Shown one piece after another: positions 1 to 4,629 of a DNA stretch of 4,629 nt. Location of the stretch: the IMG/VR virus record IMGVR_UViG_2706794663_000006. One strand, 5' to 3'. The notes beneath the pieces were generated by a model that did no database searches, was not told the origin of the DNA, and saw only the letters and a program-made list of their open reading frames with translations. Position 1 is the first letter of the stretch; each line of letters opens with the position of its first letter. Position numbers and translations under genes: made by a program. Source of the DNA: a virus. Taxonomy: Duplodnaviria > Heunggongvirae > Uroviricota > Caudoviricetes.

Positions 1-28
1 AGGGACAGCTGATAGAAACAGAAGCCAC
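1..28 (-). CDS. insA: IS1 InsA, N-terminal 9 codons only (partial, runs off window)
   Basis: GTG start at 28..26 on the minus strand, preceded by GAGG. Codons GTG GCT TCT GTT TCT ATC AGC TGT CCC give (M)ASVSISCP, the known InsA N-terminus. Position corresponds to IS1 nt 56, the canonical insA start. Confidence 0.7.
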
Positions 29-83
29 TGGAGCACCTCAAAAACACCATCATACACTAAATCAGTAAGTTGGCAGCATCACC
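1..83 (-). mobile_element. IS1 insertion sequence, left terminus (partial; element continues beyond window start)
   Basis: Reverse complement of 61..83 is GGTGATGCTGCCAACTTACTGAT, which I recognise as the IS1 terminal inverted repeat. The minus strand continues TTAGTGTATGATGGTGTTTTTGAGGTGCTCCAGTGGCTTCTGTTTCTATCAGCTGTCCCT, matching the known IS1 left end through the insA start. Identification is from memory of the IS1 sequence, not a search. Confidence 0.85.
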
Positions 84-260
84 GTTTTAACGTTACTAAT
101 AAATCGTGAAACAATCTCCTCATTTGTTAGTATTTTCGCCTGAGCACAGCAAGAGGTTAATATTGCAACCGTCATTAAAAATGGCTTTATCACAAAACAA
201 ACTCCATTGTTAGCATGTTACGCGATAATTTTGCCTCATCTTTCACCACAAAAAAAGAAC

Positions 261-2210
261 TCACCTTTTAAATGGAGAATACCCAACATCATGGGTGATT
301 TTCATAAAGGGATCGCCTGTTTTCGGCAAATCGATAACGCGCATTCCAGGCGGCGCGTTGTCAAACGTCACCTTAAGTTCGCTGCGGGTTGCCGGTGAAG
401 ATGCAAGGCTTAACAGCTGATTCCTTTCCAGTGATACATTCGGGGTGTAGCGTTTATCGGGAGATAAATACCCATCACCACGTGGCATCTGCCATCCGGT
501 CATGTCATAGACAAAATCATGGAACTGTTTGCCCCACTCGTCGAACTTATCATTCAGACCAAATCCACTGTTCAGTGCATCAGCCACAAAATTTTTAACA
601 AGCCAGGGATGTGCTTTTTCAAACTCCTGCGCCATCATGCCCAGTTCAAGCAATCCACCAATCAGACTGATCTTTCCGAGGCCCTTTAATTTCAGCCCTG
701 TTTTTCCTGCCGCCGTTGTCCATTGATTCTGGGCGACTGTTGCCGCACGAATACTTGCCACCGCCTTCACACCAATATACAGGGCAGAAACCGTTGCTAT
801 TGTTTTTACTGCCTGTTCCCATCCCCCCATTGCTCTGACAACCTGATCAACCTCCTGCCAGACTTTTTTCACAACCGGACCGACCGTTTCCCAGTTATCA
901 ATTATGAGATATGCACCACCGACGAGAAGCGCAATTAATCCCTTTGCCGGCGTCATATTCATCACGCTACCCATGATTTTTGTTATGCGTGTCAATGTGC
1001 CAATCGCCACGCCCATCGTCAGTAATGCCGCACCAGTTTTCGCGATGGTTTTTACGACCTCAGGATTTTCTCTGACAAACGTGCGCACTTCTTCCAGAAA
1101 AGGCTTCATCTCTTTTATGCCTTCATTGAGTGAAGGCAGGAAGGTTTCCCCCAGCGTGGAAGAAATCGCATTGATCTGGTTCTGCAGCAGCAACAACTGA
1201 TTTTCTGTCGTCGCGGCACGGGCGGCATATTCTTTCTGCATTGAGCCGCCATACTGCTGCGCATCCGCCACACGATTAAAGTTGGTTCGCAACAAATCCA
1301 GATTCGTGAGCAGCGGCGCAATGGCCCCCAGGGATTCCTTCCCGAACAGCGCTTTCAGCACAGCAGCCTGTTTTTCTTTCGGCACTTTTGCCAGAGAATC
1401 CAGTACGTGCAGCATGGCCCCGCGGGCGTCTTTCTGCATATCCGCCGCCAGTTTTTTCGGGCTAATGCGCAACGAGCGGAGCACTTTTTTCTGCGATTTG
1501 GTGGCAGAATCCCTCGCTGTCAGCGACAACATAAAATTCTTTATCCCCGTCGCAGCAATTTCTGACTCCACCCCCATTCCGGCAATGGTTGCCCCCATTG
1601 CGGCAATCTCTCCGGAGGCCACACCCGCAACACTGCCTAAAGGGCCAATACGGGTCACAACATCAGAAATCTTTTTCGCACTTGCAGGACCGGTATTACC
1701 AAGATAGTTAATCTTATCCGCAAGCCCTGCCACCTCTCCCTGTGTCAGTTTAAAGGCAGTGCGCCACTGCGCCATCATCTGACCGGATTCTTCTGCCGTG
1801 GTGTCAAAGGCCACGCCCATCTTCACGGCATCGTCAGTAAACTGCATCAGCTCGTCACGGGCGATACCAGCCTGACCACCCGCCGCCACAATTTCGGCGA
1901 TACCTTCCGCCGACATGGGCAGTTCTGTTGACAGGTCGCGCACCTGCTCCGTCATTGCCTTAAACGCTTCCGGCGTATCCAGACCATCCACCACTTTCCG
2001 GACATCCGCCATTTTTGATTCAAGGGCAATGGCAGATTTGACCGGGAGCGCCAGCGCCCCCAGTACTGCGGTTCCGGCACCCGCTGCGCCCAGTAACAGG
2101 CTGGCAAACTCCTTTTTAAAACCTTTCAGCTGGCGCTGCATTCCCTTCAGCGGTGCCGATACCTTATCCACGGCAGTGATGATCGCCTTCAGCTGAAAAC
2201 TGTCAGCCAT
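261..2210 (-). CDS. Phage tail tape measure protein (649 aa)
   Basis: Long minus-strand ORF directly downstream of the tube and chaperone genes. The protein is Ala/Gly/Leu/Lys-rich and predicted helical, with a Gly/Ala-rich hydrophobic N-terminal segment (LLLGAAGAGTAVLGALALPV) and a central hydrophobic block (TGAALLTMGVAIGTLT..., LIALLVGGAYLII...), typical of tape measure proteins. GAGGAG Shine-Dalgarno sits 7 nt upstream of the ATG at 2210..2208. Coordinates include the TGA stop at 261..263. Confidence 0.9.
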   Translation of the reverse strand: MADSFQLKAIITAVDKVSAPLKGMQRQLKGFKKEFASLLLGAAGAGTAVLGALALPVKSAIALESKMADVRKVVDGLDTPEAFKAMTEQVRDLSTELPMSAEGIAEIVAAGGQAGIARDELMQFTDDAVKMGVAFDTTAEESGQMMAQWRTAFKLTQGEVAGLADKINYLGNTGPASAKKISDVVTRIGPLGSVAGVASGEIAAMGATIAGMGVESEIAATGIKNFMLSLTARDSATKSQKKVLRSLRISPKKLAADMQKDARGAMLHVLDSLAKVPKEKQAAVLKALFGKESLGAIAPLLTNLDLLRTNFNRVADAQQYGGSMQKEYAARAATTENQLLLLQNQINAISSTLGETFLPSLNEGIKEMKPFLEEVRTFVRENPEVVKTIAKTGAALLTMGVAIGTLTRITKIMGSVMNMTPAKGLIALLVGGAYLIIDNWETVGPVVKKVWQEVDQVVRAMGGWEQAVKTIATVSALYIGVKAVASIRAATVAQNQWTTAAGKTGLKLKGLGKISLIGGLLELGMMAQEFEKAHPWLVKNFVADALNSGFGLNDKFDEWGKQFHDFVYDMTGWQMPRGDGYLSPDKRYTPNVSLERNQLLSLASSPATRSELKVTFDNAPPGMRVIDLPKTGDPFMKITHDVGYSPFKR

Positions 2211-2289
2211 GCTTCATCTCCTCGTTAATGCGGACGGCCTCGGCTTCCAGTTCTGTAAACTGCGAAACAGCCCCCCGTCGCAGCTCCAG
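2203..2289 (-). CDS. 3' end of tail assembly chaperone or its frameshift-extended form (C-terminal 28 codons visible; upstream part masked by N-run)
   Basis: Of the three minus frames open after the gap, this one reads LELRRGAVSQFTELEAEAVRINEEMKHG* with E. coli-like codon choice (CTG, GAG, GCC, CGC, AAC). The other two frames use rare AGG/AGA/TTA codons and give implausible peptides. Its TGA stop (2205..2203) overlaps the tape measure start (ATGGCTGA), as expected for the G/GT-type chaperone product. Confidence 0.5.
   Translation of the reverse strand: MELRRGAVSQFTELEAEAVRINEEMKHG
2218..2223 (-). promoter_or_regulatory. Shine-Dalgarno (GAGGAG) for tape measure gene
   Basis: Minus strand reads GAGGAG, then a 7-nt spacer (ATGAAGC), then ATG at 2210..2208. 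Confidence 0.6.
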
Positions 2290-2290
2290 T

Positions 2291-2562
2291 NNNNNNNNNN
2301 NNNNNNNNNNNNNNNNNNNNNNNNNNNNNNNNNNNNNNNNNNNNNNNNNNNNNNNNNNNNNNNNNNNNNNNNNNNNNNNNNNNNNNNNNNNNNNNNNNNN
2401 NNNNNNNNNNNNNNNNNNNNNNNNNNNNNNNNNNNNNNNNNNNNNNNNNNNNNNNNNNNNNNNNNNNNNNNNNNNNNNNNNNNNNNNNNNNNNNNNNNNN
2501 NNNNNNNNNNNNNNNNNNNNNNNNNNNNNNNNNNNNNNNNNNNNNNNNNNNNNNNNNNNNNN
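2291..2562. other. Run of 272 N (assembly gap or masked sequence) inside the tail assembly chaperone region
   Basis: Uninterrupted n characters from 2291 to 2562. Flanked on both sides by minus-strand coding sequence. Confidence 0.99.
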
Positions 2563-2660
2563 TCGTCATACGTGGGCTCGCGCAACTCCAGCACATGCAG
2601 CATTTCGTTATGCGCTGTCACCGGTTTTTTTAAAACTATTTCTGTAACGTTCATTGCCAT
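2563..2660 (-). CDS. Tail assembly chaperone, 5' portion (32 codons visible: MAMNVTEIVLKKPVTAHNEMLHVLELREPTYD...; remainder masked)
   Basis: ATG at 2660..2658 overlaps the tube stop as TAATG. GGGAGGG Shine-Dalgarno lies 8 nt upstream. Position between tube and tape measure is the conserved location of the tail assembly chaperone (lambda G/GT, P2 E/E+E' analogues). Confidence 0.6.
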
Positions 2661-3016: not shown

Positions 3017-4512
3017 TATGCTGACTCCTCTGAATACTGAAGACGGAACTGGTTAACCACCGCAAAGACACGTAACTGATTAACATAATCCGGCGGGAAC
3101 AGCGTATTCAGTCGGTTCGGGTTATCTGCATCACGCTCAACTATCAGATACTGTTTAAACAGATCGTAATTTTCCACAATACCGGCACGCTCCATCTGAC
3201 GATATGTCGCCAGAAGTTCCCCTTTGATAACGGCAGGAGTGACAATCGCCTGCCCCGGACCAAAACGGGTACCATCATTTGCCAGCTTGTGACGTCCGTA
3301 CTTGCTTGTGATGACCGATTTCAGTTTGCGAAGAACATATGCACTGGTATGCAGAGTTTCACTGTCCAGATAGCTGTTGTCTGCCACGCCATACGCATTC
3401 TTTTTGTAGGTGGTTACGGAACGCTGGATCTGCAACGTGCCGCCTTCCACATAAGCCGTCGCCACGCCGTGAGATAAAAGGGTCTGCTGCTCTGTCATGA
3501 TGAATCGCTTACCTTTCGGTGCCGGAAGCATCCCCACCAGCTCCCCCGTCTGTGTCGGACGGGCAGGATCATTCCGGATAAATACCGCTTCACGGGCAAG
3601 GCGACTGGCAACCAGTTCATCGACAGGCGACTGGGTTTCTTTTTCGTAACCGGCAAGCGTGATATGTTGCTGATTATGCATATCTCCGGCACCAACCAGC
3701 TCTGACAGCGTTCCCAGTTTTGCGGTATAGCCATGCCCGTATAACTGGCGCGCATAACTCCAGCGACCGCTGCTGTCATTCATTTCGGTCATCATCATAT
3801 TGATGGAGGCGGCATCGTTGAACGGCAGACCGATAAAGTCGAATGCCTCATCGCCCATAGCAGCAACAGCGGCGGTAAGATCAGGCGCTCCGCTACCGGC
3901 AGCACCGACTTCCGTCACCACCCGAAGCCCTGCTGGCAGAATCTCACCACCACCAGAACCATAATAATTCAGACAGACCGGTAACTCATTACCATACAGC
4001 CCCTTATGACGGGCAGTCAGCGTCACCACACCTGCATCAGATGACGCCGTAAACGGCAGGGTGATAACCCCGTTTACCGCTTCCTTAATCGCGGTGGCAA
4101 CCGCAGTGGCATCATCGCCATTCACCACAGGCACCTGTACACGGGAGCGCCCGACATACAGACTCAGGGTGCCGCTTTCCTCTGCTTCTCCGGCAACCGT
4201 CACCCTGACCGTCGCCGCCGCCCCTCTGGCTTCCGGTACTGCAATAACATACAGTTCACCGAAAGGATCTGTCTGACGGTAGACTTCCACCATACGCGCC
4301 AGCTGGCTCCCCGCCCCACAAATCTGGCGGGCATAATCTGCCGATGGCATCAGCACCAGGCTGTTAACCTCAATGGCTGCATCGTTGCTGGCATGCCCGA
4401 TCAGTAATGCAGGCGCGCTGGTCACCGCTGTATTTGCCGCAGAATTGTTCATCTCGGCGTAGAACAACGGCACCAGCGTATTCGACGGAACAGTATTAAA
4501 ACTTATCGTCAT
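3016..4512 (-). CDS. Phage contractile tail sheath protein (498 aa)
   Basis: Roughly 500-aa ORF immediately upstream of the tube gene in the conserved sheath-tube-chaperone-tape measure order. Size fits Mu/SfV-type sheath proteins rather than the shorter P2 FI type. ATG at 4512..4510 is the first in-frame start (in-frame stops at 4521 and 4527 upstream). Confidence 0.8.
   Translation of the reverse strand: MTISFNTVPSNTLVPLFYAEMNNSAANTAVTSAPALLIGHASNDAAIEVNSLVLMPSADYARQICGAGSQLARMVEVYRQTDPFGELYVIAVPEARGAAATVRVTVAGEAEESGTLSLYVGRSRVQVPVVNGDDATAVATAIKEAVNGVITLPFTASSDAGVVTLTARHKGLYGNELPVCLNYYGSGGGEILPAGLRVVTEVGAAGSGAPDLTAAVAAMGDEAFDFIGLPFNDAASINMMMTEMNDSSGRWSYARQLYGHGYTAKLGTLSELVGAGDMHNQQHITLAGYEKETQSPVDELVASRLAREAVFIRNDPARPTQTGELVGMLPAPKGKRFIMTEQQTLLSHGVATAYVEGGTLQIQRSVTTYKKNAYGVADNSYLDSETLHTSAYVLRKLKSVITSKYGRHKLANDGTRFGPGQAIVTPAVIKGELLATYRQMERAGIVENYDLFKQYLIVERDADNPNRLNTLFPPDYVNQLRVFAVVNQFRLQYSEESA
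3025..3030 (-). promoter_or_regulatory. Shine-Dalgarno (GAGGAG) for tail tube gene
   Basis: Minus strand reads GAGGAG, then an 8-nt spacer (TCAGCATA), then ATG at 3016..3014. The motif lies inside the last codons of the sheath gene. Confidence 0.55.
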
Positions 4513-4522
4513 GATTTTTTAG

Positions 4523-4530
4523 CCTTATCC
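4523..4530 (-). promoter_or_regulatory. Shine-Dalgarno-like purine tract (GGATAAGG) for sheath gene
   Basis: Minus strand reads CAAGGATAAGGCTAAAAAATC then ATG. AAGG lies about 10 nt upstream of the start. Confidence 0.4.
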
Positions 4531-4574
4531 TTGAGGTGTACTGGCAATAGCGGACACTACCATTTGTTCTTTTT

Positions 4575-4629
4575 TTAAGCAGCCATCTGATGATATTTTT
4601 CCCTGAAGGCTGCCGGGGAGATATTCCCC
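4575..4629 (-). CDS. Possible 3' end of the gene upstream of the sheath (partial; only about 17 codons, ...GNISPAAFREKYHQMAA*)
   Basis: One minus frame is open from the window edge to a TAA at 4577..4575, leaving a 62-nt gap before the sheath start. The other frames give less protein-like peptides. Too short to confirm. Confidence 0.25.
   Translation of the reverse strand, partial: GNISPAAFREKYHQMAA

Follow-up and report, generated by a model that had tools for sequence, protein, structure and literature searches.

Identical Chromosomes Point to an Ordinary Tail Assembly Chaperone Gene with a Conserved -1 Frameshift Site beneath an N-Run in a Prophage Tail Module

Introduction

The Pfam family PF10109, "Phage tail assembly chaperone proteins, E, or 41 or 14", is the family of gpE of phage P2 and gp41 of phage Mu, and the slippery heptamer of phage lambda is G GGA AAG. 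According to a review, frameshifting of the G/GT type is widely conserved among long-tailed dsDNA phages, is more efficient in the P2-like ones, and takes the form of a -2 shift in Mu (PMC5009743). In lambda, gpG and gpGT are two products made in a fixed ratio through a -1 slip near the end of a gene located 5' of the tape-measure gene (PMC5009743). The curated annotation of P2 gives a protein E of 91 aa and a fusion E+E' of 142 aa, which arises by a -1 shift at TTTTTTG. Relatives of the locus studied here also occur in the Mu-like-tailed temperate phages phiP27, SfV, SfIV, and ST64B, whose records annotate only the frame-0 protein of the gene, named "tail protein" or "hypothetical".

The window, that is, the whole stretch of 4,629 nt analyzed here, comes from the IMG/VR virus record IMGVR_UViG_2706794663_000006 (Caudoviricetes) and contains a run of N between its tail tube and tape-measure genes. 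Based on complete chromosomes that agree with the window at every readable base, the masked interval was restored and compared with its relatives. We found that the N-run is very probably a gap or mask in the record rather than a biological feature, with the interior of an ordinary tail assembly chaperone gene beneath it.

Results

Tail Genes and Boundaries of the Window

The features of the window are collected in table 1. The chaperone gene lies directly between the tube and tape-measure genes, all of them on the minus strand, which is the position of a G/GT-type gene. Its ATG at 2660 overlaps the tube stop codon, codons 1-32 can be read at 2565..2660 (MAMNVTEIVLKKPVTAHNEMLHVLELREPTYD), and the gene then enters the N-run. 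On the other side of the gap, the last 28 codons of the -1 extension are readable at 2203..2289, and its stop codon (2203..2205) overlaps the tape-measure start, the ATG of which is at 2208..2210. Of the two readable ends of the chaperone gene, one is thus in frame 0 and the other in frame -1. At position 2273, the window has C where E. coli FDAARGOS_944, phiP27, and the representative genomes of Shigella flexneri and E. coli have A; this base changes RRVAV to RRGAV in the -1 extension and serves as a lineage marker for the window.

Table 1. Coordinates of the Features of the Window
Feature	Position	Strand	Basis
IS1 end	1..83	.	IS1 InsA and DDE genes adjoin in twin loci; annotated as IS1-like element IS1A
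Tail tape measure protein, 649 aa	261..2210	-	ORF; PF10145 at 1.4e-44
-1 frame extension (T or E' part), readable 3' end	2203..2290	-	Translation LELRRGAVSQFTELEAEAVRINEEMKHG*; matches the conserved -1 tail of relatives
N-run	2291..2562	.	272 N by count; 242 nt in identical genomes
T TTT TTT slippery heptamer, bracket within the gap	2361..2397	-	Mapped from twin locus L003 3844..3850; conserved in relatives
Tail assembly chaperone gene, readable 5' end	2563..2660	-	Translation; identical to the start of the 111-aa gene in twin loci
Tail tube protein, 118 aa	2660..3016	-	ORF; PF10618 at 1.4e-33
Tail sheath protein, 498 aa	3016..4512	-	ORF; PF04984, PF17482, PF17481
IS600 (IS3-family) end	~4527..4629	.	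HTH_Tnp_1 and rve transposase adjoin in twin loci; annotated as IS3-like element IS600

Twin loci were found by an exact-protein look-up with the tape measure and tube proteins of the window, which led to complete chromosomes. There, the order is IS3-family transposase, sheath, tube, a 111-aa gene, tape measure, and IS1; a fragment of a head protease precedes IS600, and IS1 interrupts a 160-aa gene 3' of the tape measure. The IS600 boundary is approximate (4524..4532) and is situated about 15-20 nt upstream of the sheath ATG. At the other end, BLAST similarity to the annotated IS1A reaches about position 111 of the window, and we take the exact end of IS1 to be position 83 from the terminal repeat of this element. 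The window is therefore a degraded tail module of a Mu/SfV-like prophage, truncated by IS600 on one side and IS1 on the other, and it corresponds exactly to the unique segment between two multi-copy IS elements. Its IS load, together with the catalogued name of the chaperone protein (see below), suggests that the host is probably Shigella sonnei. Short-read assemblers emit such a segment as a stand-alone contig. The tape measure of the window was found in 1,875 collection blocks in which the longest contig carrying it was 2-5 kb.

Two further observations concern this decay. The hypothetical 160-aa gene occupies window 84..193 on the minus strand (ORF 62..193) and is cut by IS1 some 36 codons in; it begins with MIKPFLMTVAILTSCCAQ, which resembles a lipoprotein signal peptide, and the gene is intact after the tape measure in relatives (L001 812..1294, L007 6018..6500). 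An ISEc60 insertion divides the sheath gene of this prophage in FDAARGOS_944, its nearest E. coli relative (L001 5223..6413), an independent case of IS-mediated decay of the same tail module.

Sequence and Length beneath the N-Run

The base count gave 272 uninterrupted N, at the coordinates reported in a preliminary description made from the letters of the window, and the remainder of the window was free of N. Considering that an N-run is not a statistical feature, no chance test applies to it. Six complete chromosomes had 0 mismatches to the 4,357 readable bases of the window, and all six carried one identical sequence of 242 nt where the window has N. The interval was likewise 242 nt in six additional loci with 1-94 flank mismatches. 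Among these 12 chromosomal loci, 11 shared the same 242-nt sequence and the remaining one differed from it by a single base. Two IMG/VR contigs matching the 38-mer beside the gap were N-free and also had a 242-nt interval, and one of these two, L023 (4,498 nt), represents the same IS-bounded segment assembled without N. In total, the interval was 242 nt in 14 of 14 loci with matching flanks, 13 of which shared one sequence. The same length was obtained for FDAARGOS_944 (99.8% identical) and for phage phiP27 (96%). The 38-mer flanking the gap had no match in the genome or metagenome contig collections.

The preliminary description had asked whether the N count reflects the true length. It does not agree with any sequence having identical or near-identical flanks, as 272 N stand against 242 nt in all of them. 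The hidden interval is thus most likely 242 nt long, so that the N count is 30 too many and the restored window would have 4,599 nt. The unmasked sequence that the description had also called for was obtained from the six identical chromosomes, and it consists of chaperone interior with no unrelated gene. Because this content was taken from identical relatives and not read directly, we infer, though strongly, that the gap in the record of the window holds exactly the 242-nt consensus.

Alternatively, the source isolate might truly have 272 nt, in which case its chaperone gene would be longer by an insertion or duplication of 30 nt (10 codons) that keeps the frame. Hard masks normally keep coordinates, and with 30 being divisible by three, the readable ends would retain their frame relation. 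However, a random size error is divisible by three one-third of the time, and an in-frame excess therefore means little. The form longer by 30 nt was seen in none of the 14 loci with matching flanks. Nor did it occur among 52 close alleles from 5,426 complete E. coli genomes, in which the 621-nt query spanned 621, 615, or 613 nt and never the approximately 651 nt of such an allele. A protein of about 121 aa was likewise absent among the 15 cluster members listed. A true insertion, which we consider very unlikely, would be unseen in about 115 related sequences and could change the chaperone itself or the distances near the slip site. The preferred reading is that the surplus 30 N probably stem from a gap size estimated by a scaffolder, which would account for the 30-base error, or from a convention of masking. 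N-runs of at least 5 were found in 0 of 51 related loci fetched from the genome collection through the neighboring tube gene, and the family is therefore not masked by its content.

The Restored Chaperone Gene and Its Frameshift Site

In the sequence from the twin loci, the restored gene encodes a 111-aa protein in frame 0. The mask hides codons 33-111, the stop codon, and 3 bases, which amount to 71% of the frame-0 gene. The protein belongs to PF10109 (Phage_TAC_7), with 29.8 bits against a curated gathering cutoff of 25 (E 6e-07); this assignment concerns the protein from the identical-flank genomes, of which the window alone shows 32 of 111 residues. It also matched PHROG 166, "tail protein", at 5e-28, and an identical 111-aa protein is listed under the name "phage tail assembly protein" of Shigella sonnei on at least 1000 contigs. 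Its 90%-identity cluster also lists a 118-aa "phage tail tube protein" and has a representative of 118 aa, which looks like a clustering quirk rather than biology.

Frame 0 reads CTG CGT TTT TTT ACC and so contains the heptamer T TTT TTT, which occupies codons 88-90 of the 111, an in-frame slippery site of the kind found in G/GT-type genes. In the numbering of the window, the position of the heptamer depends on where the 30 surplus N are put, being 2361..2367 for the high side and 2391..2397 for the low side; with low-side anchoring, the frame-0 stop codon is at 2295..2297. A -1 slip at the heptamer leads into a frame of 52 codons, YPVGDGKHLRKRLYNVAWFWKLNPLELRRGAVSQFTELEAEAVRINEEMKHG, whose TGA overlaps the tape-measure ATG, and the fusion would have 142 aa. 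The peptide across the predicted -1 junction is ...ILRFFYPVGDGK. The supposition of the preliminary description that the chaperone body and its frameshift site lay under the N-run was accordingly supported, since codons 33-111 and T TTT TTT are present in the six identical chromosomes.

Based on the heptamer and the conserved -1 frame, we infer that two products would be made from this gene. Ordinary translation would yield the 111-aa protein, and a fraction of ribosomes is predicted to slip one base back at T TTT TTT (codons 88-90) and to read the 52-codon extension, giving the 142-aa fusion with a stop overlapping the tape-measure start codon. If lambda G/GT and P2 E/E+E' are a guide, the two proteins may bind the tape measure protein and the extension may bring in tube subunits, with neither protein expected in the finished virion.

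The RNA 3' of the heptamer was not more stable than shuffled sequences (z = -0.97), and thus gave no sign of a stimulatory structure. Lambda G/GT is not known to need such a structure, and the result is therefore neutral. Other early in-frame heptamers (TTTAAAA, AAAAAAA, and GGGTTTT) were rejected, as their -1 products would be just 17-45 aa long and are not conserved. A sequence search of solved structures with the 142-aa product returned no match at E<=1.

Conservation of the -1 Extension

The gene was compared across 11 phages and prophages of Escherichia, Shigella, Salmonella, Yersinia, Pantoea, Burkholderia, Pseudomonas/Stutzerimonas, and Edwardsiella (counted as seven host genera), in which the identity of the chaperone protein to the twin of the window falls as low as about 35%. 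In all 11, a T TTT TTN heptamer lies in frame and ends at codon 85-90, and the -1 ORF, 138-150 aa long, reaches or overlaps the start of the tape-measure gene. The slip sites of all 12 aligned sequences fell in one column. The same layout was found in 45 of 51 species-representative genomes fetched through the neighboring tube gene. These 45 loci were chosen for having the -1 extension, so 45/51 is the unbiased figure; the motif count given below is independent of this selection. In loci from Symbiopectobacterium, Arsenophonus, Pantoea bathycoeliae, and Atlantibacter assemblies, the region 3' of the tube gene yielded either no chaperone gene in intact form or no heptamer followed by a -1 extension. 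Gene decay is likely in them, because most are insect endosymbionts.

The 45 loci include a change of slippery sequence, which was observed in eight Gilliamella-type loci (seven of Gilliamella and one of Candidatus Schmidhempelia), where C CCA AAG stands at the same codon instead of the T-rich heptamer (T TTT TTY elsewhere). The -1 tails of these loci are longer (63-68 aa) and have a glycine-rich start. Here, the slippery sequence has been swapped and the layout kept.

Over all 52 distinct sequences, the -1 tails were 50-68 aa long, and 51 of them contained an FW[RK]xNP-like motif; the frame-0 tails were variable and had 3-23 aa. Between the heptamer and about the tape-measure start, the -1 frame thus has no stop and is conserved at the protein level, as in genes of the G/GT type. 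Since Mu, a member of the same Pfam family, is reported with a -2 shift (PMC5009743), a Mu-like -2 (or +1) shift was also weighed as the source of the second product. In the twin sequence, the +1/-2 frame is indeed open for about 45 codons past the heptamer. Nevertheless, across the 52 distinct relatives the median length of the -2/+1 tail is 16 codons, 44 of these tails stay below 45 codons, and the conserved motif occurs in none, in contrast to the -1 tail, which also aligns with the E' tail of P2. A -2 or +1 route was rejected as highly improbable, and the gene was not assigned to the Mu-type -2 chaperones, the conserved extension being in the -1 frame.

Open Reading Frames across the Gap and Other Contents

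Four X-containing ORFs of 148, 123, 172, and 139 aa had been dismissed in the preliminary description as artefacts of translating N. This judgment held for three of them. The 148-aa ORF joins the real chaperone start to a wrong tail (the real products being 111 and 142 aa), and in the restored sequence the ORFs of 123 and 139 aa shrink to 35 and 31 aa. The 172-aa ORF on the plus strand, on the other hand, stays open as a 162-aa frame antisense to the chaperone, although it still does not appear to be a real protein. In the twin loci and phiP27, this frame runs without a stop through the entire chaperone gene, as a real overlapping gene would. Against such a gene, which we regard as scarcely credible, stops interrupt the frame in SfIV (2), ST64B (2), YeP1 (4), SfV (4), AH07 (10), and EPP-1 (7), and long antisense frames elsewhere occur in high-GC hosts only. 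Because it is open only in near-identical sequences and broken in these six more distant enterobacterial relatives, the 162-aa frame is best read as a shadow ORF.

Unrelated content in the gap, whether a small inserted gene, mobile element, or RNA gene, is hardly credible. Both flanks continue directly into chaperone sequence in every relative, 272 nt is below the size of an IS, and the recovered interval contains no inserted gene. Rfam gave no match to the restored region at E<=1, and the sole other long frame is the unconserved antisense ORF.

Discussion

The hidden sequence is a standard tail assembly chaperone with a conserved -1 frameshift site, of a kind already known. Among the described systems, the P2 pair gpE/gpE+E' offers a close parallel, and the script used for the window also reproduced the curated P2 annotation. 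Both genes belong to PF10109 and lie between the tube and tape-measure genes, both have a T-rich heptamer in the same alignment column, and in both the fusion has 142 aa and the end of the extension overlaps the tape-measure start. The differences are an amino-acid identity of only about 15%, T TTT TTT here versus T TTT TTG in P2, a frame-0 product of 111 aa here versus 91 aa, and a tail module that is Mu/SfV-like and not P2-like.

phiP27 (P27p46, L46), an Stx2e phage, is much closer, with 96% identity at the DNA level, 98% in the chaperone protein, and the same heptamer and -1 tail. SfIV and ST64B have about 70% protein identity and the same layout. Unlike the window, which is a remnant, phiP27, SfV, SfIV, and ST64B are complete phages. 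No experimental report of frameshifting for the phiP27/SfV group was found in the literature. Lambda resembles the locus in its two products, its -1 slip, and the place of the gene 5' of the tape measure, and differs in its non-contractile tail. Mu shares the gene order (DUF2635, sheath L, tube M, gp41, tape measure gp42, DNA circulation), with gp41 named in the same Pfam family, and is distinguished by its reported -2 shift (PMC5009743), as opposed to the conserved -1 extension here. Judged by sequence comparison, the gene appears to be an ordinary member of the G/GT-type class that uses the -1 route.

The -1 product is unannotated in phiP27, SfIV, ST64B, YeP1, SfV, AH07, BgVeeders33, PG1, EPP-1, DVM-2008, and the PGAP annotations of E. 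coli. Its coding region appears there as an "intergenic" gap of 84-141 nt, for example at 3312..3395 of the phiP27 locus (L002) and before the tape-measure gene in loci L025-L033.

For this record, the N count is unreliable as a length (242 nt, not 272), and ORFs translated through N are to be discarded. Because the window is a prophage remnant cut by IS600 and IS1, the chaperone gene may no longer serve phage production here, and its function in this host is doubtful. The finding itself has little biological weight, as the conserved -1 frameshift has been known in long-tailed phages for decades. For the phage group as a whole (phiP27, SfV, SfIV, ST64B, and the E. coli prophages annotated by PGAP), it means that public annotation presents only the frame-0 protein of a gene whose -1 extension is conserved.
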